A stretch of 64,000 nucleotides of DNA from sequence record PV252060.1; one strand, given 5' to 3'. Shown piece by piece: positions 6,122 through 63,483 of this stretch. The notes under the pieces were generated by a model that saw only the letters and a list, made by a program, of their open reading frames with translations, ran no database searches and had not been told where the DNA came from. This DNA comes from Escherichia phage nithesis. The first letter of the stretch is position 1; every line of letters starts with the position of its first letter. The position numbers and the translations under genes were made by a program.

Positions 6122-8419
6122 ATGAACGAATTATTCTCTCAAGGTGGTAAAGGCTCTACTGGTATTCTTACCAATAAACAAGCCATTGCCCGTAAGTTTG
6201 GTGTTAAACAGAATGAAGTGGTCTACTTTGCTGTAGGTGTAGACTTAGGTGGTTACAAAGTTATTTACGATAAGACTACCCAGCGTGCTTACTCATTACC
6301 CGCACTCCCAACAGGAACTACTGCTGTAAGCCTCAATGAACATGCAATCCTGATTCATTCAGCAGGTACAGTTGATTTGGGGGAACTGGCTGCTACACGT
6401 AGAGAGTTCGTGGTCCTGTCTGACACGTTTGCTACTGGTTTGGTAGTGAATACACGAAATGAATTATTATTTCATAATGGAGTAGGTTATACCTACTTAG
6501 GTACTCTACCTGTAACAATTACCACAGGAACTAATCCTGTAGGTAACACAGATTGGAAACCACAGACTGACCTTAATTTACGGGAAGAATTAGCGGCTGA
6601 CTTCGGTTATCAGCTAGTTCCGTCTGTGGAAAAGCAACGATGGCTTTACGCCGGGGACGTGCGTGCTTTTGGGGTTGTTGGTGATGGGTCTGATGAGGCA
6701 TCTAGTTTGCAGTTAGCCATTAACTCGGGTAATGTTTTTGTTCCCCCGGGCATGACGGTTTCTCATTCACAAGTCAACATACCAAAAGGTACGATTTTTA
6801 CTTTCGGTCATGGTGCTGGGTTGACATCATTGACTGCTAATGCTCTTAATTTCGTCAGCGAGAGCCAATTCAGCTTGCTTTCCCCTGCAGCTTCTGGAGC
6901 AACGTCCATCACATTAACATCTGAGGTGACAGGAACTGGGTATACCCGGGCTTTGGTAATACGCACTGAGGACACAAGTGACGCTTGGTATATCGCCAAC
7001 GCACAGAATCCGGATGTAATCGGATACCAAGGTGAATCTTTTTTAATATCGTCCATATCAGGTGCTACTGTAAATTTAGCAACGGCTTTACCGTGGGACC
7101 TAACTACCACCAATTCGATTATTTATCTTATAAAAGGCAACGCTACTAAGTTCATCGGGGGAATCTTAAAAAATGCTGCGTCAGGGTCTAGCTACATGTA
7201 CCAATCCGTGGGGGCTTCACTTATAGAGTTCCATGGTACTGCTTTTGATTATAATGGAAACGGCGGTTCAAGGCATGATAACGCGTACGGTGTGGTTTAC
7301 CACAACACTACCCATACCGGGCGTGTCGGAAATGGTAATATATTTTTTGGTTATGGATCTACAGATTGTACTGTCACGGGTACGACCCACATTGGAGGGA
7401 CCGGTGGGGATGCGCAAATAATATCTTACGCTGGCTGCCGTAACATCCGTACATCCCTTAACATCCTAAAACCTACAGCTAACAACGGGGGTATATATTT
7501 TGGTGCAAAAAGCTTCGACTGCAACACCCATGCTGATTATATTAAAGGCGGAAAGTATGGGGTTATGGGGGCATTTGGTGCTCAGCGTATTGTTGTGGAC
7601 TCGCTGGCGGCAGACGACCAAGTATCAGGCGCTATCTTTATGGAGCAATGCCAGAACTTTACCATCACAAACCCGTCTATTAGATTCGTAAGGACTGGCG
7701 CTCAAACAACCGCTGCGATATTAATTAAGGACTGCGATTATGTGACAGTGGATGCAAATGTCCCTGTAAATACAGGGGCGAACGGGTATATAGTCAGTAT
7801 GTATAGCGCTCCTGCATACGCCCTAACAGTTAGAAAAAATATAAACATTACGGTAAAAGGTACTGGCAGTGTATACCTTACTAGCCCTATGACCAATTTC
7901 TCGATTAAAGACTGTTTAACATCCGGCGGTATGACAGTTTACTACGCCAATGGTACGTCTACTTACGGCAAGGTTACGCGTAATAGTTGCCGGTTTTTAG
8001 TAGCTCAAAGTTTCCAATATTGTGACATAGATAGTAACACCATTGTGGGGGATTCTGATTCTGAGGGTATACGCCTTGGTGGTAACTGTAGATGGAACAA
8101 CGTATATAGAAACAAGGTTAGTGGGGTTACTACGGCATTCTTCGTTAACTCAGCACCCGCAAATCTATACACGAATGCGTTTCATGATGATAACGTAATA
8201 GATTACTCAACAGTAACCACCTTCGTATCATCTCAGACTGGAACCACCACACCAGTTACTGGAGTGTTAAACCCCGCTCCAGTGAGGAATTTCTTTCTCC
8301 CGGCAACAGGTTGGCAGGATAGCCCTACGGTAAAAAGAACTGTTAGTGGCTGGAGGCATAAAGGCACTACAACAGGCACAGCGTCTGATTGGTTTACTAT
8401 CCCCTCGTCAGAAGCGTGA
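6122..8419 (+). CDS. second tailspike / tail fibre, probable beta-helix depolymerase-type protein
   Basis: 765 aa; long Gly/Thr/Asn/Ser-rich repetitive sequence consistent with a beta-helix tailspike; located in the tail module; followed by a hairpin. Confidence 0.5.
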   Translation: MNELFSQGGKGSTGILTNKQAIARKFGVKQNEVVYFAVGVDLGGYKVIYDKTTQRAYSLPALPTGTTAVSLNEHAILIHSAGTVDLGELAATRREFVVLSDTFATGLVVNTRNELLFHNGVGYTYLGTLPVTITTGTNPVGNTDWKPQTDLNLREELAADFGYQLVPSVEKQRWLYAGDVRAFGVVGDGSDEASSLQLAINSGNVFVPPGMTVSHSQVNIPKGTIFTFGHGAGLTSLTANALNFVSESQFSLLSPAASGATSITLTSEVTGTGYTRALVIRTEDTSDAWYIANAQNPDVIGYQGESFLISSISGATVNLATALPWDLTTTNSIIYLIKGNATKFIGGILKNAASGSSYMYQSVGASLIEFHGTAFDYNGNGGSRHDNAYGVVYHNTTHTGRVGNGNIFFGYGSTDCTVTGTTHIGGTGGDAQIISYAGCRNIRTSLNILKPTANNGGIYFGAKSFDCNTHADYIKGGKYGVMGAFGAQRIVVDSLAADDQVSGAIFMEQCQNFTITNPSIRFVRTGAQTTAAILIKDCDYVTVDANVPVNTGANGYIVSMYSAPAYALTVRKNINITVKGTGSVYLTSPMTNFSIKDCLTSGGMTVYYANGTSTYGKVTRNSCRFLVAQSFQYCDIDSNTIVGDSDSEGIRLGGNCRWNNVYRNKVSGVTTAFFVNSAPANLYTNAFHDDNVIDYSTVTTFVSSQTGTTTPVTGVLNPAPVRNFFLPATGWQDSPTVKRTVSGWRHKGTTTGTASDWFTIPSSEA

Positions 8420-34595: not shown

Positions 34596-34717
34596 AGTAG
34601 CTTTAACTTAGCTAACGAGGCTAGGTCTCTTAGTATATATTAGTAGAGTGCCGGACTGTCTCACCGGCATTGTCTTTAGAGTGCAATGCAATCAGGACTA
34701 TGTTCTCTATTAAAAAG

Positions 34718-34791
34718 TACCCACTACTGGATTTGAACCAGTGACCTTCCGATTATTAGTCGGTTGCTTTCCCCGTCTAAGCTAAGTGGGC
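34718..34791 (-). tRNA. tRNA gene, anticodon uncertain (apparent AAU with mismatched anticodon stem)
   Basis: Minus-strand cloverleaf: acceptor GCCCACT/AGTGGGT, D-arm GCTT..AAGC, T-arm ACTGG-TTCAAAT-CCAGT; anticodon arm ACCGA-CUAAUAA-UCGGA has an A-A mismatch; no encoded CCA. Confidence 0.55.
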
Positions 34792-34796
34792 ATAAA

Positions 34797-34872
34797 TGGT
34801 TACCCGGACAGGATTCGAACCTGCGTCCTAGTTGGTTTACTAGTGGGGCTTTACCACTAAGCCTACCGGGTA
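34797..34872 (-). tRNA. tRNA-like gene with non-canonical 6-nt (or 8-nt) anticodon loop
   Basis: Acceptor TACCCGG/CCGGGTA, D-arm GGCT..AGCC, T-arm GCAGG-TTCGAAT-CCTGT, encoded CCA; the only good anticodon stem (CTAGT/ACTAG) leaves a 6-nt loop AAACCA. Confidence 0.5.
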
Positions 34873-50862: not shown

Positions 50863-53430
50863 TTAGTTACCTTTCAGTTTATTTAGACGATTACGGTAGA
50901 GGGACTTAAACCCAGGAATATCCTCTGGATTCTTCTTGAGATGTTTAACCAAACTACCTAAGTCCAGTGTCTGTAGAATGTCATTTTTATTCCAGCTATA
51001 ACTGAATAATTCTTTGTAACCGTTAAGTATTTTAAAGTACTTATGGTTACGGGGATTAACCATCTTTGCATACGGCTCTAAGTCATTCACTGACTTAATA
51101 CAACCCATTTCAACAAGTTTTTCTTTGTTGTCGTGTGGCCGATTTCGTAGAAAGTCATACGCCCATTCATATTCTGGTTTAAAAATCAGATTCTGTAATG
51201 GTTTGAATGTTAGACCCAGTATGTCGAGGATTTCCCAATATTCCCTGTCATCCAGTCCCACGTATTCAAGAATACCAATACGGTGTTCAGTAACATATTT
51301 CTTGAAGCCTTTACTGGTAATAACTGACATCAATTCACTAAAGCGAACATCATCAATGTGGATAGCACCACGTCGTTTAGCCTTGTTAGCTTCGATTTGA
51401 TTGCGACAGACAACTGTCTCTGCTTTCATCTCATCGGACAATTCATACCATTTCCACATGGTTCCTATTTGAGCAGTTACAGGACTACCAGAACCAACCT
51501 GATTGGCTAGCACGTAGTACTTAGGTTGCTCCACTTCGACGAAACCGTACTTCTTATGGCGACTTGAGTCAGCAAAACCCTTGTCAATGAATGGTTTAGA
51601 TACCAAATCACCGCTCTTATCCCGTACAGGGGTAGTACCAAGAACTGCATTCAATGAAATCAGAGCATTGGTTTTACCCCCTGCTTTGGTTTTATTGGCA
51701 GCTATTGTCTTAGCACGTTTCTCAGCAGCTAACTTAGCCTGCTCTCTACGGAAGTTAGTCGGTTTGTCCCACTCATTATATTGAGTAAGGTCAATTACTC
51801 TATAACCCATAGCAGTGAACTTAGCTACAGCTTCCTCTGCTGCACCCTTCTTAGGACCAACAACGTGAACAAAAGCTGTACGCTCCAGGTCACCTCGGTT
51901 GTACTCAGGGAAGTATGAGAAAGAGTCTGCACAATCAGATAAACGTCGGGTAACTACAACGTTCTTGGTAGTGAATATGCCAATACTCTGATGAGAGTTA
52001 TGGAATATCCTAAAGTAGTCAGCGAGTTTACCCTTCTCCAAGTCAACACTGTTACCCTGGTTCACTATGTAACCAGACCACTTAATACCAGTAGCTTTTA
52101 AAGCAGCAAGCTGAGGTAAGTGCAGATGTCGATAAACTAATTCATGGAATTGGGAGTGTGTACCTTCTTCACGAGTATCCTTAAGAGCACGCATAGCCTT
52201 ACCATAAAGTTTCTTAAGACCTGCATATTCAGGACGAGCTAACAATGCTTTATTGGATAAATTACGCCAATGCTTGATGTGATGCTTACGTTGCTTAGCC
52301 CATAAACTAGAGGACATATAACGTTGAACGATTCTGTCTGTAACAGCAAGCATAAAAGAAGGATAGGTCCAGAAGCAAGTAGAGGATTTAGAGGCGTATT
52401 CTTCAATCTGCTTAATAGCTTCAGGAATCTTAGCCTTAATCTCTTTCTCCATACGGTCTACTAAATCTACACATAGAGTAGTAATACCATCGTCGGTTAA
52501 CTTCTGGTTAGACAGCGTTTCTCGACTAGGAGCAATAGCCAGAGTATCCGGTGCAGCCTGAACTACTAAATTAGATGCTCCAATAATATTCATGAAGTTG
52601 AGGATAAGACCTACAGCCTCTTCACTAGCCGGGCTGGATACAATTGGGTACATTACGTTACCGTAACGAACGAATATGTTGCTGTTACCCATATAGCCTT
52701 TATACCAGCTATCAGACATATCATATGAACCAGGTTCAAATGACATGCCTAATGTATTCAGTAGAGTGTAGTCACCCTGCTGAATGCTATTACCTGCTTC
52801 TGTTTTAACAAGTTTAGGGATACTAAGCTTAGCTTTAATCTCACCATTGAACACGATTGATGTGATGTAATGCACGAAGGTATTTACGTCATGTTTACCC
52901 AACTGGAATTTAACTTCCAGTCCAGATTCCTCAGTGGGAATATTAGTAACAATAGGAACAATACCAGGCTTACCATCATTCTCAATCGCAGCTTTAGCTA
53001 CGTTATATACCGACATCTTCCCTTGGTTCCATGAAGTAACCTGGAAGCTATCTGTATAAGCGAATGGGGATTTACATCCCAGACCAAAGCCACCAGTAAC
53101 ACTACTGTTGGACTTTTTAGTAGATGTACCATAGACACCATAAATGGAACCAATGAGTTCATCTGGGATACCGTTACCGTAGTCACGAAAGGTAATAAAG
53201 TTGTTTGTATCAATAGTGATACGAATAGGGGTATCAGTCTTACCTGCTTCAATATGAGCATCCCAACTGTTACAGATAGTCTCACGGACTACTGCCAGAG
53301 TAGGATTGTTATACAAGGAAGTACTTAATACATGGAAGAATGCCGGGTCATCAGAGATGCCAAAGGCAATTGTTTCTTTGCCACCCAGTGTCGCTGAGGT
53401 AGCTATTTCATTGGTATCTGCAACTAACAT
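50863..53430 (-). CDS. rIIA-like protein with N-terminal GHKL/histidine-kinase-like ATPase domain
   Basis: 855 aa; N-box-like RETICNSWDAH, G1-box-like RDYGNGIP, G2-like GTSTKK...GGFGLG. Confidence 0.5.
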   Translation of the reverse strand: MLVADTNEIATSATLGGKETIAFGISDDPAFFHVLSTSLYNNPTLAVVRETICNSWDAHIEAGKTDTPIRITIDTNNFITFRDYGNGIPDELIGSIYGVYGTSTKKSNSSVTGGFGLGCKSPFAYTDSFQVTSWNQGKMSVYNVAKAAIENDGKPGIVPIVTNIPTEESGLEVKFQLGKHDVNTFVHYITSIVFNGEIKAKLSIPKLVKTEAGNSIQQGDYTLLNTLGMSFEPGSYDMSDSWYKGYMGNSNIFVRYGNVMYPIVSSPASEEAVGLILNFMNIIGASNLVVQAAPDTLAIAPSRETLSNQKLTDDGITTLCVDLVDRMEKEIKAKIPEAIKQIEEYASKSSTCFWTYPSFMLAVTDRIVQRYMSSSLWAKQRKHHIKHWRNLSNKALLARPEYAGLKKLYGKAMRALKDTREEGTHSQFHELVYRHLHLPQLAALKATGIKWSGYIVNQGNSVDLEKGKLADYFRIFHNSHQSIGIFTTKNVVVTRRLSDCADSFSYFPEYNRGDLERTAFVHVVGPKKGAAEEAVAKFTAMGYRVIDLTQYNEWDKPTNFRREQAKLAAEKRAKTIAANKTKAGGKTNALISLNAVLGTTPVRDKSGDLVSKPFIDKGFADSSRHKKYGFVEVEQPKYYVLANQVGSGSPVTAQIGTMWKWYELSDEMKAETVVCRNQIEANKAKRRGAIHIDDVRFSELMSVITSKGFKKYVTEHRIGILEYVGLDDREYWEILDILGLTFKPLQNLIFKPEYEWAYDFLRNRPHDNKEKLVEMGCIKSVNDLEPYAKMVNPRNHKYFKILNGYKELFSYSWNKNDILQTLDLGSLVKHLKKNPEDIPGFKSLYRNRLNKLKGN

Positions 53431-53457
53431 TTATTTACTCTCCAGATTAAATGTTGC

Positions 53458-53706
53458 TTACATTAGAACTTGTTTACACTTATCAAAAATAGCTTTACGA
53501 AGTTCAGCTTCTTCCCGTGGTTCATCATTAGGATGGTGACCCACTGGACTGTTTTGAAAAGCATTCATTAGGAATAAGACCTGATACTCGGTTAAGCCAT
53601 TAATCTGAATGCTATACGTTTTCTCTGAGGTGATATTTACATTAGCCATTACGTTTACCTGCCATTGCTTGTAATACAAACACAGCCATATCTGATGCCA
53701 TGTCAT
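53458..53706 (-). CDS. small hypothetical protein
   Basis: 82-aa ORF in a run of tightly packed small minus-strand ORFs. Confidence 0.3.
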   Translation of the reverse strand: MTWHQIWLCLYYKQWQVNVMANVNITSEKTYSIQINGLTEYQVLFLMNAFQNSPVGHHPNDEPREEAELRKAIFDKCKQVLM

Positions 53707-54016
53707 CCGTTATATCGTTGACCGTTCCATATGGTAATGGGCCATTCTCTTCCCAGTTATCTAATGTGTTTTGTACTTCAGCTAAACCAGCCTGAATCAT
53801 TTCCCTATTTGGCTCCAGCCATAATTTACGTTCCTCTGCTAATGCAGCAATACACACACAAAGGGAGGCTATATTAGCTGGACAAGCAGCAATATCACCC
53901 GTAACAGCAATCTCACTAAGTGGGACAGCCTTACCGGTTTTACTATGAATTACTTCAGGGTTAATCATGAATTTGCTCCAGGTTATGGGCAGGAATAGGG
54001 AAGCATGGATAGTCAC
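53642..54016 (-). CDS. small hypothetical protein
   Basis: ORF-track ORF; true start probably at an internal Met. Confidence 0.3.
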   Translation of the reverse strand: MTIHASLFLPITWSKFMINPEVIHSKTGKAVPLSEIAVTGDIAACPANIASLCVCIAALAEERKLWLEPNREMIQAGLAEVQNTLDNWEENGPLPYGTVNDITDDMASDMAVFVLQAMAGKRNG

Positions 54017-54173
54017 CGGTAGGGTCCAGTGTTACTGATACATGCAGTGTATTGGTCATTTGGGTTAGCATCTGAGCAGCATTGAAATCATCCTGGATAC
54101 AGGCATATACAATGTCACCCTTCTCACCCTCACACATTATTGGGGTGTCTTTAATGCGGTATTTAGCAGGCAT
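53961..54173 (-). CDS. small hypothetical protein
   Basis: 70-aa ORF. Confidence 0.3.
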   Translation of the reverse strand: MPAKYRIKDTPIMCEGEKGDIVYACIQDDFNAAQMLTQMTNTLHVSVTLDPTGDYPCFPIPAHNLEQIHD

Positions 54174-54202
54174 ATGCCCTCCTGAAAGAGTTAATTGAAA
54201 CC

Positions 54203-54227
54203 AAAAAAAGACCTCCCGGAGGAGGTC
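54203..54227 (-). terminator. intrinsic terminator (minus strand)
   Basis: GACCTCC-CGGA-GGAGGTC hairpin followed on the minus strand by T7. Confidence 0.6.
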
Positions 54228-54233
54228 TTAGGT

Positions 54234-54470
54234 TTACTTACGATTTCCACCAAAGAAGCGTATCACACGTTCCTTTGCTTCATCCTGCTCTTTAATAGCT
54301 ACATAGTCTCGTGCATAGTAATAAGCACACCATAAGCCAATACTACATGCAGAGAAGCGAGCCACTACGAAGAACATCTCTTCTAGGCTCTGAGCATTAT
54401 GTAATGAAAATACAAATTCCAGAACCAGGATGATACTTACAATCATTGCCTGGATAGCTAGTTTTTTCAT
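54234..54470 (-). CDS. small membrane protein
   Basis: 78 aa with two hydrophobic segments. Confidence 0.35.
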   Translation of the reverse strand: MKKLAIQAMIVSIILVLEFVFSLHNAQSLEEMFFVVARFSACSIGLWCAYYYARDYVAIKEQDEAKERVIRFFGGNRK

Positions 54471-55411
54471 TCAGTAATAGTCTCACCTGGGATTAATTTA
54501 CGGAACTGGATAAAGTGGAGTAAGTTGCCTGAGTACAGATTTCCTTCTTTATCCATGGATGTAACACCTTGTTCCCAAGTAACTGAGTTCATGTTATTCA
54601 CATACTTCTCACTAAGGTTCATAGGAGTAGCCTGATGTTCTGTTGGAGAAGCATGAATAGGTTGGTCTTCCACTAACTTAGCAAATAAGCTAAGGTCTTC
54701 TTCGATAGTAGATGGGCGTCCCTCAAAATTGTTATAGGAAGCACGGGCACAGCGTGCAGCACTTACTTTAAGAAGTAGTCCATGCACTTCTGCATCACTT
54801 GGTTCATCGCGTGTAATTCGATTACGTTTGCAGAAATTGTAAGCCCCAACACGGTCAATATGAGCAATATATGGCAAATGCCATTGCCCATACGATAATG
54901 TCCTTGGTGTACTTTCTTCGTGTGCCTTACGCATGGCCTGAGCCAGTAAACGGATTTCCGGCTGGGCATCCTCATGGTCACGTAAACCATAGAAATTAGC
55001 CCAGCTAGTTGAAGTTACTACTACACGGATATGTGTGAAGGGTTCCAGAATACGGTTAACAATCTGCTTGTGTACTTGCCCACGACGCAGCTGTTCTGCA
55101 TACACAGCAGCAGCAGATGCAGCGTTATCCCAGATAAACTTAGCATCCTCAATCTCCATAGGAGTGAGTTCTTCCTCTGCTTGCATGCCTTTCTGGTTCT
55201 TGCCCCAGTGACTTGGCATCACTGGTTCATTACGAACCTGTTCGATAAGTTTAGAGGTAGGAATAGCACGACTACTTGAAGCATTACGGTTGAATACACG
55301 GTGAGTCATAAACTCACTGTGAATGAATCGGGGATAAACCAATTCAAAGGTTGTGATACGAGTTCCTGTTTCTGGATGAACGGAATCTGCAATTACTGAT
55401 GCCTTAATCAT
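54467..55411 (-). CDS. thyX: flavin-dependent thymidylate synthase (ThyX)
   Basis: 314 aa; HRVFNRNASSSR matches the ThyX signature (R)HR-x7-S-x-R apart from the first Arg. Confidence 0.55.
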   Translation of the reverse strand: MIKASVIADSVHPETGTRITTFELVYPRFIHSEFMTHRVFNRNASSSRAIPTSKLIEQVRNEPVMPSHWGKNQKGMQAEEELTPMEIEDAKFIWDNAASAAAVYAEQLRRGQVHKQIVNRILEPFTHIRVVVTSTSWANFYGLRDHEDAQPEIRLLAQAMRKAHEESTPRTLSYGQWHLPYIAHIDRVGAYNFCKRNRITRDEPSDAEVHGLLLKVSAARCARASYNNFEGRPSTIEEDLSLFAKLVEDQPIHASPTEHQATPMNLSEKYVNNMNSVTWEQGVTSMDKEGNLYSGNLLHFIQFRKLIPGETITE

Positions 55412-55854
55412 TAGAATGACCTTAGATAGTTGGTGATACCACTTCTCGTTTCTGTGATTCTCTTAACCTGAACATATACCAGCTTAAACTCACTACGAGG
55501 TAGTTCCTGTAATACTGCCACACCTTCAGTAAGAGCCACAGAACACGCTATGGCGGTTTCTTCTTTAAAGGAGTACAAGTCTTCATACATGAGGGCTTCA
55601 TACTCTTTACGGAGCATACAGAGAGCATTTCTTGCCTTATCACTTACTTCTTGTGAACCAGCAGTCATAGCTAAGCTGTATATGATAAAGACTTGTTCAA
55701 AAACAAAGTCCAGTAATCTATCAGGGTTGTTAGTCCCCATAAATAATTTTGTTATGCAGGAACGAGCTTTACGGTTGAGTTCATACTCATCCTCTATGCC
55801 TTTATTATAAAGAACAGGATTTCGTTCCCTTTTTCTTAGAAATGGGATACGCAT
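55411..55854 (-). CDS. hypothetical protein
   Basis: 147-aa ORF, stop/start overlap with neighbours. Confidence 0.35.
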   Translation of the reverse strand: MRIPFLRKRERNPVLYNKGIEDEYELNRKARSCITKLFMGTNNPDRLLDFVFEQVFIIYSLAMTAGSQEVSDKARNALCMLRKEYEALMYEDLYSFKEETAIACSVALTEGVAVLQELPRSEFKLVYVQVKRITETRSGITNYLRSF

Positions 55855-56237
55855 TAGTATTTACTACCTCTTCTATACCAGGGGTAGTGATGGGTAGTGC
55901 TCTTACCTTTGAACACATCCTTGGTACGGGGATTCTTTTGTATTTGGGCCAGATAAAGATGCATTTCGTCATAACATGGACTAAGCCAGAACTTATCTAT
56001 GATTCGGTCTACCTTAGATTTCAGATGTGGTTCTGGGGGAATGTATGGATGAAAAGATCTGCTAGTAGTCCATCCTTTTTGAACAAGAACCTGCATTGCT
56101 GCATAAACATCAGGACCAATTCCATTATCTTCTACTAGGTCATGGATAGTTTTACCCAAAGTGAGCATTGCAGTTTGTTCTAGTTTACTTAAGTCCAGCC
56201 CATACAAGATAGACTTACCATTTCGTCTGTTTGTCAT
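55854..56237 (-). CDS. hypothetical protein
   Basis: 127-aa ORF. Confidence 0.35.
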   Translation of the reverse strand: MTNRRNGKSILYGLDLSKLEQTAMLTLGKTIHDLVEDNGIGPDVYAAMQVLVQKGWTTSRSFHPYIPPEPHLKSKVDRIIDKFWLSPCYDEMHLYLAQIQKNPRTKDVFKGKSTTHHYPWYRRGSKY

Positions 56238-56252
56238 AAGAGTACCTGTAAA

Positions 56253-56280
56253 TAAAAAAGCCCACTGGTTAGGTGGGCTT
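56253..56280 (-). terminator. intrinsic terminator (minus strand)
   Basis: GCCCAC-loop-GTGGGC hairpin followed on the minus strand by a T-run. Confidence 0.5.
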
Positions 56281-56354
56281 GGGTTAGGAGATGGATAAGC
56301 AATGAGCTGGAAGCAACTTCCACAAGCACCACTATGTAATGATGCTTAGATTAG

Positions 56355-56651
56355 TTACTCTGCTTTACTGCTCGTTTGAGACACGTTGTATTGGTTACCA
56401 CTACCAACGTTAACGATTGTAGTCTGAGACTGTCCTTTATTAGACAGTGACCAAATCAGTGCTACTACCCAGAATACTAGTGACCAGCCTAATACGATAT
56501 TAAGCACACCAATGCCCCACTTAGAGGCATGGCCTCGTGCAAAAGCAATGATAGTAGGGATAAGGTATACAGCTAATATGAATAAGAAAACAAGGATTGC
56601 TGCTAAAGATTCCATGATGGTTCCTATGTGGGGTTGAGTTAGTTTCTTCAC
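56355..56651 (-). CDS. superinfection-immunity-like small membrane protein
   Basis: 98 aa; two transmembrane segments and IIAFARGHASKWGIGVLNIVLGWSLVFWVVALIWS pattern resembling the phage Imm family. Confidence 0.45.
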   Translation of the reverse strand: MKKLTQPHIGTIMESLAAILVFLFILAVYLIPTIIAFARGHASKWGIGVLNIVLGWSLVFWVVALIWSLSNKGQSQTTIVNVGSGNQYNVSQTSSKAE

Positions 56652-56688
56652 AAATAGCCCAACTATGTTGGGCTATTTAGGCAGCTAC

Positions 56689-56898
56689 TTACTCAGCATC
56701 TTTGCTTGTAGGAGCAAGAGCTTTTTTCAAGTAATTACGTACTGAACGATAAGTTTCTTTGGTTTCCATAGCACCATCATTTACGAATGTGATGCGTGCA
56801 CAATCAGACAGTGGAACAGATTCCACTGCAATCACGTTTGCAGCATTAATGGTTACACGTACATTTGAGGTTGCATTAGTTACTTGAAATACTGACAT
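56689..56898 (-). CDS. small hypothetical protein
   Basis: 69-aa ORF. Confidence 0.3.
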   Translation of the reverse strand: MSVFQVTNATSNVRVTINAANVIAVESVPLSDCARITFVNDGAMETKETYRSVRNYLKKALAPTSKDAE

Positions 56899-62265: not shown

Positions 62266-63483
62266 TTAACTTAATGCATAGTCAGTTTCAAGAATGTCCT
62301 GCCAGAGGCTGTCATCCAGCTTACCAGCAGAGAACTCTTGTCCTAGTACCTGTGACAGAATGAAGCCTAGCAGGTCACTCTTAGCAATGTCAGACAGAAT
62401 CTGATTGTACTGACGACGCAAGTCGTTGCCATAGTTAGGATGACAACGGAAGCAGTCATGTACAGTCATTACAGGGAAAGGTTTCTTAGGCATAGTATTG
62501 AGCATAGCTAAGATTACATCTGTATCTACCAATGCAATGGTTTCTGAGTCCAGATAATCAAGGATACGCGTAGACAGGAAGCCTGATTTCTCATAACTAG
62601 ACCACAGTGTATTAACCATTCCATAGTTATCATCAGAACCCACCATATAATCGCCAGTTCCTTCACAGAGGGATTTAATATAGTTCACCTGGTTCATGTC
62701 GAAGTTACAACGACGCAGCATCTCACGTACCACCATCCCATCAATAGAGTGAGTGATGTTAGCAGAGAGCATACGAGTCTTCTCTTCAGTACCCTGAACC
62801 ATACGAGTGATGTCGAATGGTTTACCTAAGAAGTTAACGGTCTGTACTTCTGGAACCATGACCTTAATGACAGCATGGAAGTTGTCAGGCAGTATCCATA
62901 CATAACGGTTGGCATCCGGGTTACCACATTGTAATAAGAACTTGTTAAGTGCCCAAGGACCACTAGCAACAGTTTCCATTACATTCTCAAAAGTCTTGAG
63001 ACGAATACCTTCACCGAATACTTCTTTAGGCTTAGCTTCTGAGCCGTAGAATGCAGTCATAACTGCCTGCTTAGTGTCACTACGTTTAATACGAGATGCT
63101 TCACCAAGGATGTCCAGCATCTTGTGATAGATAACTGTATAAGCATCACGACGTAATGGCTTACCATTCTCTCCCATGTAGTTAACTACGTTACACAGTT
63201 CAGCAGCAGAGCGGTCACCAGTTAGGCAGGCCAGTAACTGCAAGCCGGATGATGTAGCATCCAGAGCTACGGCATAACCGATAGGCTTACCTGCTTTCAT
63301 ATCTTTCCATGCGTTTACACCAGCAAAGAACAGAGCAGAATCTTCAGCTTCATCTACCAGATTAAGCAGGTTAGCTTCGTTTTCATCGAACCAGGCAATA
63401 CGCTCATCCCATGTCTTCTTATCTAAGCCATAGTTATTAGCGATATCTACTTTCAGGTATTCACGAGCGGTTAACAGTTGCAT
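62266..63483 (-). CDS. T7-like RNA polymerase, large (catalytic) subunit of split RNAP II (N4 gp16-like)
   Basis: 405 aa; VALDATSSGLQ matches T7 RNAP motif A (DGSCSGIQ), TVHDCF matches motif C (HDSFG); N-terminus aligns with the T7 RNAP region before motif A. Confidence 0.7.
   Translation of the reverse strand: MQLLTAREYLKVDIANNYGLDKKTWDERIAWFDENEANLLNLVDEAEDSALFFAGVNAWKDMKAGKPIGYAVALDATSSGLQLLACLTGDRSAAELCNVVNYMGENGKPLRRDAYTVIYHKMLDILGEASRIKRSDTKQAVMTAFYGSEAKPKEVFGEGIRLKTFENVMETVASGPWALNKFLLQCGNPDANRYVWILPDNFHAVIKVMVPEVQTVNFLGKPFDITRMVQGTEEKTRMLSANITHSIDGMVVREMLRRCNFDMNQVNYIKSLCEGTGDYMVGSDDNYGMVNTLWSSYEKSGFLSTRILDYLDSETIALVDTDVILAMLNTMPKKPFPVMTVHDCFRCHPNYGNDLRRQYNQILSDIAKSDLLGFILSQVLGQEFSAGKLDDSLWQDILETDYALS

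Follow-up and report, generated by a model that had tools for sequence, protein, structure and literature searches.

Upon infection by T4, the closest described system to the locus considered here, the proteins Imm and Sp stop DNA injection by superinfecting T-even phages (PMC7677548; PMC11436027). A functional analogue, presumably unrelated in sequence, is SieA of Salmonella phage P22, an inner-membrane protein that blocks the entry of superinfecting DNA (PMC10883804; PMC11436027); unlike a protein made in lytic infection, SieA is expressed from a prophage (PMC10883804). Here, we describe a homologue of T4 Imm in Escherichia phage nithesis (PV252060.1). The window, i.e., the whole 64,000-nt stretch analyzed, represents 64 kb of a genome of ~72 kb, and the gene in question, imm (56355..56615, minus strand), encodes an 86-amino acid (aa) member of the T4 Imm family. 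An earlier note on this DNA had pointed to a block of small open reading frames (ORFs) surrounding a thymidylate synthase gene and, at one end of the block, to a superinfection-immunity-like protein. On the whole, we regard it as likely that the region is an N4-type middle-gene segment, equivalent to gp27-gp32 of phage N4, that carries a T4 Imm homologue, for which an exclusion role is suggested by homology.

Membership in the Imm family is supported by profile searches, pairwise alignments, and hydropathy. The imm product matched Pfam model PF14373 (Imm_superinfect) over model positions 1-42 of 42 (E = 7e-17) with 61.5 bits against a gathering cutoff of 27.9, and T4 Imm scored 58.2 bits on the same model, a similar margin over the threshold. 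A match was also obtained to phrog_1039, "immunity to superinfection" (E = 9e-34). BLASTP against T4 Imm (NP_049660, from NC_000866) gave an alignment starting at residue 1, with 29% identity over 69 residues (E = 2e-10), while tblastn with T4 Imm as the query recovered 56615-56424 of the window (E = 3e-7). The proteins are 86 aa here and 83 aa in T4, both begin with ME(S/T)L, and in both a short loop of the form RG-x-x-S/K connects two hydrophobic helices; Y17, P20, R27-G28, W44-S45, W49, and I54-W55 are conserved in both, and 21 columns are invariant among T4 Imm and eight Imm proteins of the genus Gamaleyavirus, to which the window phage belongs (see below). Hydropathy places the two hydrophobic segments at about residues 1-26 and 35-58, separated by the short basic loop RGHASKWG; the second helix is followed by a polar C-terminal tail. 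Both genes also lie among nucleotide-metabolism genes in the pre-late region. Unlike T4, a T-even myovirus, the carrier here is an N4-like podovirus, and the C-terminal tail of its Imm is unrelated to that of the T4 protein and occurs in alternative forms. On this evidence, the product of 56355-56615 is a true T4 Imm homologue with two predicted transmembrane helices (about residues 4-26 and 35-58). The single PDB sequence match of Imm, to a designed helical protein, was dismissed as spurious.

The earlier note had proposed an Imm-type two-helix membrane protein, and this proposal is upheld by the PF14373 score, the BLASTP alignment with T4 Imm, and the two hydrophobic segments; the hydrophobic helices, whose absence the note had named as the observation that would speak against it, are present by hydropathy. 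The locus that it gave was also correct. Its length of 98 aa (56355-56651) was not, as the protein is probably 86 aa long. The GTG at 56651, which opens the 98-aa reading, abuts the 3' end of a 12-bp hairpin (hairpin A, described below) and is replaced by GAG in Escherichia phage ECBP1. The ATG at 56615, on the other hand, is preceded by AGGA 8 nt upstream, and Met1 of T4 Imm aligns to this Met. For these reasons, the start of imm was moved to ATG 56615.

Within the genus, orthologues from phages G7C, ECBP1, Bp4, IME11, EC1-UPM, PhAPEC7, and ZQ2 occupy the same position, share 77-96.5% protein identity with the window protein, and are flanked by an identical layout of hairpins and terminator. 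The helical part (residues 1-59) is nearly invariant, with a ratio of nonsynonymous to synonymous substitution rates (dN/dS) of 0.12, compared with 0.40 for the tail. Long and short tail forms exist in the genus, the long form with two alternative endings; the window phage has a long tail ending ...NQYNVSQTSSKAE, and that of ECBP1, IME11, and others is six residues shorter. By tblastn, Imm homologues were found in 888 phage records, many of them annotated "immunity to superinfection". The closest outside the genus belong to Acinetobacter phages (~61% over the core), followed by T4-like phages of Citrobacter, Klebsiella, and Escherichia (40-53%). The RefSeq records of ECBP1, Bp4, IME11, EC1-UPM, and PhAPEC7 already label the gene "immunity to superinfection", and the EC1-UPM genome paper of 2013 lists a "putative membrane immunity protein, IPR016410" for it (PMC3853248). 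The imm gene thus has annotated counterparts in public records and is a member of an established family; what is new here are corrected gene starts, an operon map, and the boundaries of the imm cassette. The value of these results lies mainly in correct annotation, namely that Gamaleyavirus phages carry a T4-Imm-family gene that is absent from N4.

By homology to T4 Imm, the protein would be made in mid-infection and inserted into the inner membrane, where it would hinder the DNA of a second phage in passing that membrane; as a result, the resources of the infected cell would be protected from later-arriving phages. The excluded phages may be of the phage's own kind or may be T-even competitors. 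As N4-type DNA delivery differs from the T4 tail tube, the latter, rather than the phage's own kind, may be the target. Several points weigh against an exclusion role. The argument is one of homology, at 29% identity to T4 Imm, and the charge distribution of the protein does not decide its membrane orientation; transcription timing and terminator function, discussed below, are predictions from the DNA as well. To our knowledge, the exclusion phenotype belongs to the T4 protein only. In the literature searched, no exclusion experiment was found for any N4-like phage, and no experiment on Gamaleyavirus Imm or N4 gp28-gp32. In addition, N4-type podoviruses deliver their DNA via an ejectosome of which the virion RNA polymerase is a component (PMC13434306), and, compared with the T4 tail tube, this route may entail a different exclusion target. 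Unlike in T4, neither an Sp partner nor an imm.1 neighbour was found for imm within the 64-kb window (of ~72 kb), where tblastn with T4 Sp (Spackle, gp61.3) gave a best E of 2.0.

An Imm-family protein could also have no part in exclusion and serve instead in another membrane role, such as sensing superinfection for N4-type lysis inhibition together with rIIA and rIIB, or as a guard against host abortive-infection systems. The rIIA and rIIB genes are found ~3 kb downstream of imm, and N4 displays lysis inhibition upon superinfection (bioRxiv 10.1101/2025.11.12.688109). Moreover, relatives matching PF14373 occur in phages of Mycobacterium, Acinetobacter, and Salmonella with very different injection machinery, a spread that argues against one specific target. 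However, N4 shows lysis inhibition despite having no imm, so the gene is not required for this trait, and the rapid-lysis mutations of N4 reported so far all fall in late-region membrane lysis proteins (bioRxiv 10.1101/2025.11.12.688109). T4 Imm, the sole tested member of the family, is furthermore an exclusion protein (PMC7677548; PMC11436027). Taking these observations together, we consider a role outside exclusion distinctly improbable, and the link to lysis inhibition is a weaker alternative than exclusion at DNA entry. Exclusion, the reading that we prefer, whether of DNA entry through an N4-type ejectosome or of T-even competitors, would bear on the design of phage cocktails: Gamaleyaviruses are employed against pathogenic E. 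coli, and phages given alongside them could be excluded.

The carrier was placed by megablast of positions 53400-56700, which retrieved 72 related phage records. The best match was ECBP1, with 90.9% identity over 100% of the query, and all of the taxonomy-bearing annotated records that were fetched or stood among the 25 best matches are Gamaleyavirus (Schitoviridae, Enquatrovirinae). Judged from these matches, the window phage is a Gamaleyavirus coliphage of the G7C group of N4-like podoviruses. The small-gene block lies on the minus strand between the dCTP deaminase and rIIA genes, with rIIA (50863-53430) downstream. The genes upstream, on the same strand, encode a subunit of an N4-type phage RNA polymerase (62266-63483), a Hoc-like decoration protein, an ATPase, a protein of the VWA/metallopeptidase kind, and the dCTP deaminase, and the gene order of the whole stretch matches N4 gp16 to gp33. 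Designating the small genes g25 to g33, the correspondence to N4 runs in the same order: g25 to gp27, the C-terminus of g27 to gp28, g28 to gp29, thyX to gp30, g31 to gp31, and g32 to gp32, with the same terminator ahead of gp28 and g27. In contrast to the window phage, N4 lacks imm, g30, and g33, and its gp28, of 80 aa, lacks the N-terminal module of g27. N4 RNA polymerase II (RNAPII) transcribes the middle genes of N4, including those of the corresponding stretch (PMC13434306). Given the synteny with N4 and the position downstream of the N4-type RNA polymerase gene, the block is probably of the middle class, a better term than the "early-middle" of the earlier note. No sigma-70-like promoter was detected near imm on the coding strand, which fits transcription by a phage polymerase.

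The block consists of seven minus-strand ORFs (53458-54470 and 55411-56651) flanking a 314-aa thymidylate synthase, and the extent described in the earlier note proved accurate for all of them. Since three were over-long at their mechanically listed starts and the ribosome-binding site of g27 is weak, one might ask whether short ORFs of this kind arose by chance or were wrongly annotated in DNA without coding function. All seven, however, matched PHROG families, with E values from 4e-30 to 1e-87. Codon alignments with five to nine related Gamaleyavirus loci from IMG/VR and GenBank showed reading frames kept across relatives and dN/dS of 0.07-0.41, indicating purifying selection throughout; gene by gene, the values were 0.07 for g33, 0.19 for g32, 0.18 for g31, 0.28 for g30, 0.16 for g28, 0.24 for g27, and 0.30 for imm. 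At most junctions, stop and start codons overlap in the manner typical of translational coupling. The family matches and the dN/dS values show that all seven ORFs are real, conserved genes, and they effectively refute an origin by chance, to which we attach a vanishingly small probability. None of the segments examined had dN/dS above 1. The middle of g27 (0.41), the imm tail, and g30 range from 0.38 to 0.41 and are under relaxed constraint; diversifying selection in these three, with dN/dS below 1, was not shown.

Besides imm, the starts of g33 and g32 were probably read too long. For g33, listed with 82 aa, the PHROG match spans residues 20-82 only, and the gene is 192 nt long in the PhAPEC7 annotation, on which grounds it was shortened to 53458-53649 (63 aa). 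For g32, the match spans residues 17-124 and relatives are annotated with 327 nt; accordingly, the gene was placed at 53642-53968 (108 aa).

With these starts, three units emerge: imm by itself; g27-g28-thyX-g30; and g31-g32-g33, with rIIA close behind. The division follows from strong predicted intrinsic terminators in the imm-g27 and g30-g31 spacers. The first terminator, at the end of the imm unit just upstream of g27 (56250..56280, minus strand; terminator scan, stem 56280-56258), reads AAGCCCAC-CTAACCA-GTGGGCTT followed by TTTTAT and is invariant across relatives, including N4. The second, after g30 (54200..54229, minus strand; terminator scan, stem 54229-54208), reads AAGACCTCC-TCCG-GGAGGTCTT followed by TTTTTGG. 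Equivalents of both are independently annotated in the PhAPEC7 record. Inside the units, genes overlap by 1 nt (g27/g28 and g28/thyX), 4 nt (thyX/g30), or, with the corrected starts, 8 nt (g31/g32 and g32/g33). Spacers of 73 nt from g25 to imm (corrected imm start), 117 nt from imm to g27, 60 nt from g30 to g31, and 27 nt from g33 to rIIA separate the remaining neighbours. The "tight coupling" attributed to the ORFs in the earlier note thus holds within g27-g28-thyX-g30 and within g31-g32-g33 but does not extend across the terminators, and imm is coupled to nothing.

The intergenic region around imm is older than the gene that it now contains. All nine Gamaleyavirus loci in the sample have the gene; N4 and seven more N4-like loci from outside the genus lack it, among them locus L010 of our comparison set, which encodes a ThyX 79% identical to that of the window. 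In phages without imm, the spacer that separates the g25-like gene from the g27-like gene contains, in order, the stop codon, hairpin A, GGAAGTTnCTTCC (hairpin B), CATTGCTTA, and the terminator GCCCAC...GTGGGCTTTTTT, and only 130 nt at the 3' side of the Gamaleyavirus spacer align with these regions. In Gamaleyavirus, hairpins A and B are set apart by a leader of 36 nt, the imm ORF, and an additional hairpin (hairpin 1). The imm gene therefore forms a ~330-nt cassette inside an older intergenic region composed of hairpin A, hairpin B, and the terminator.

Hairpin A (56652..56678, minus strand), a 12-bp stem with a 3-nt loop between the g25 stop and imm, reads AAATAGCCCAAC-ATA-GTTGGGCTATTT, has a fold z of -4.65, and is kept in 10 Gamaleyaviruses; an orthologous hairpin A is found in L010. 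Its stem core, AGCCCA/TGGGCT, recurs in the imm terminator, and these are the sole two sites in the 64 kb (0.07 expected). The element, whose T-run is poor, may be a weak terminator or, alternatively, a hairpin-type middle promoter element; hairpin-type promoters have been mapped in the N4-like phage LUZ7 (PMC9163698). Hairpin 1 (56323..56348, minus strand), found by folding, has an 11-bp stem, starts 6 nt past the imm stop, and marks the 3' edge of the cassette; its pairing is kept through three double, compensatory changes in the lineage of loci L001 and L004. Hairpin B (56309..56321, minus strand; GGAAG-TTG-CTTCC) belongs to the ancestral intergenic part and is also present in imm-less N4-like phages. 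Local alignment of the g25 3' end plus hairpin A with the imm 3' end plus hairpin 1 revealed a resemblance, with a score of 29 compared with 16.3 +/- 3.4 for shuffles, 6 of 1000 of which reached 29. This modest evidence hints that the insertion of imm duplicated a stop-codon-plus-hairpin element.

The 117-nt spacer after imm (56238-56354, minus strand) is better conserved than the gene itself, with 92% mean pairwise identity across 10 Gamaleyaviruses versus 85% for imm. It folds into three consecutive hairpins and a small 3-bp stem (z = -2.66). N4 and other imm-less relatives share the last two of these hairpins and the intervening CATTGCTTA motif. The spacer may carry start signals for the g27-g28-thyX-g30 unit. 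Rfam searches of the region gave sub-threshold chance matches only, i.e., a Trp leader over the terminator region (E = 0.2) and a fluoride riboswitch (E = 0.31).

As the earlier note had stated, a thymidylate synthase gene lies amid the small ORFs, and its type can now be specified: it is thyX (54467..55411, minus strand), encoding the flavin-dependent enzyme. ThyX, the counterpart of N4 gp30, matched PF02511 (E = 2e-12; 47.8 bits against a cutoff of 24.8), phrog_85 (E = 5e-115), and, under the equivalog cutoff of 87.9 bits, TIGR02170 (E = 3e-13; 49.9 bits). Of its 314 residues, the Pfam Thy1 model covers only 21-169, and the large C-terminal part is kept in N4-like phages. From these matches, the protein appears to be a divergent, extended form.

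The six other small ORFs, described in the earlier note as unassigned and as candidates for host-interaction or anti-defence functions, were compared with Pfam, NCBIfam, PHROGs, PADLOC, and PDB sequences. Imm was the only small ORF product above threshold in Pfam, NCBIfam, and PADLOC (besides ThyX), and a Pfam scan that took in divergent orthologues of N4 and further N4-like phages likewise left these two alone above threshold. Queries of PDB sequences with g31 and g32 and with g27 and g28 profiles returned no match. Across all of these resources, none of the six matched a structural, defence, or anti-defence family, and none obtained a functional assignment; a resemblance to structural proteins, which the note had named as a possible objection, was not seen in the family, PHROG, and PDB searches.

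The first of the six, g27 (127 aa; 55854..56237, minus strand; phrog_12812), is modular. Its family combines an N-terminal D(F/L)xKLE motif, a hypervariable, indel-rich middle, and the invariant C-terminus KSTTHHYPWYRRGSKY, which is basic and aromatic (family peptide NPxTKDxFKGKSTTHxFPWYxRxxKY). The C-terminal half matches N4 gp28, which consists of this module only. The family has 18 representatives among 1.84 billion clusters, and N4 gp28 used as a homologue query returned only itself. Because the homologue search yielded close relatives only, the g27 alignment was shallow; the resulting AlphaFold2 model (pLDDT 56.8) was unusable and was excluded from the fold search. One orthologue is labeled "shikimate kinase" in GenBank record PV933157, and this name lacks sequence support: no Pfam or NCBIfam match was obtained at E <= 0.1, and the N-terminal NGKS is, by eye, not a Walker A motif (GxxxxGK[ST]). 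Next to it, g28 (147 aa; 55411..55854, minus strand), the N4 gp29 counterpart, is a helical bundle; its N-terminus, MRIPF, is disordered and invariant, and its ELPRSEFK motif is likewise invariant.

On the other side of thyX, g30 (54234..54470, minus strand) encodes a 78-aa small membrane protein, seen in Gamaleyavirus records only. Hydropathy indicates one strong transmembrane helix at the N-terminus and, after it, a hydrophobic segment that is weaker; the C-tail is charged. By tblastn, g30 was found in 54 phage records, all named Escherichia, Shigella, Klebsiella, or Gamaleyavirus, at identities of either 75-95% or 42-49%, which reveals two divergent allele groups. The possibility that g30 is a class II holin or pinholin was set aside on account of its location, as it adjoins thyX and not lysis genes. 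In N4, the genes gp60-gp63 lie in the late region. It is these that serve as the lysis genes of that phage (bioRxiv 10.1101/2025.11.12.688109). The third unit comprises two acidic proteins, g31 (70 aa; 53961..54173, minus strand; phrog_7900) and g32 (108 aa; minus strand; phrog_9004, E = 1e-63), which share 51% and 62% identity with N4 gp31 and gp32, respectively, and the 63-aa accessory protein g33 (minus strand; phrog_7471). A CPANIASLCVC motif is conserved in g32. Of the nine Gamaleyavirus loci sampled, five carry g33, which also occurs in some phage records of Klebsiella, Pectobacterium, and Kosakonia; elsewhere, other small ORFs take its place. A search for N4 counterparts found none for g30 or g33.

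Could at least one of these six proteins, most plausibly g27, g30, or g33, be an anti-defence or host-takeover effector? Both g30 and g33 are accessory, and imm is genus-specific; the g30 allele groups are only 42-49% identical to each other. In g27, invariant ends frame a hypervariable middle, and locus L007 has other sequence in place of the N-terminal two thirds of the protein. The small ORFs that lie between thyX and g31, and those between g32 and rIIA, differ from relative to relative. Against this stand the lack of a match to a characterized family in Pfam, NCBIfam, PADLOC, PDB sequences, or the fold search, and region-wise dN/dS values below 1 even in the g27 middle. Furthermore, four of the six have N4 counterparts, and a role in replication or nucleotide metabolism is equally possible beside thyX and the dCTP deaminase gene. 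An effector among the six thus seems doubtful to us. Two further readings, which we would call quite unlikely, are that g27 is a modular effector specific to N4-like phages and that the imm cassette is a T-even-type exclusion gene captured by a lytic podovirus. In the first, the invariant C-terminal peptide would anchor g27 to a conserved partner and its variable middle would track a fast-evolving host target, e.g., a defence protein; in the second, the capture of imm could have proceeded by insertion with the duplicated stop-codon-plus-hairpin element. An N4-type middle segment with an Imm homologue is the reading that we continue to favor.

Among close relatives, the region is mosaic. The dCTP deaminase gene in loci L005 and L012 is replaced by an allele only 45% identical. 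An extra ORF of ~84 aa lies between g30 and g31 in L006, L007, L011, and L012 (7175-7472). In L011, a 37-aa hydrophobic ORF (7984-8097) takes the place of g33, and L006 and L012 have a gap of similar size without g33.

Several observations were made beside these results. Upstream of imm, g25 (56689-56898, minus strand) encodes a 69-aa member of the N4 gp27 family and comes after the ATPase, VWA protein, and dCTP deaminase genes. Weak matches to the Pfam family FlbD (flagellar and swarming motility protein) were obtained for three of eight family members, with a best E of 0.0039, and two of eight weakly matched bpX6, a domain of the MoxR-vWA-beta-propeller system (E = 0.002); both results are sub-threshold. 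In PV933157 (locus L001), the names "shikimate kinase", "tai4 protein", and "flagellar and swarming motility protein" look unsupported. Family scans of the window orthologues covered g27 (no match) and g25 (sub-threshold FlbD); the motility label probably derives from the FlbD similarity of g25. Finally, outside the block, ARAGORN predicted a tRNA-Ile gene (anticodon AAT) beside a second tRNA-like gene with a two-base anticodon at 34717-34872 on the minus strand, near a change in the sign of the GC skew at ~33-34 kb.

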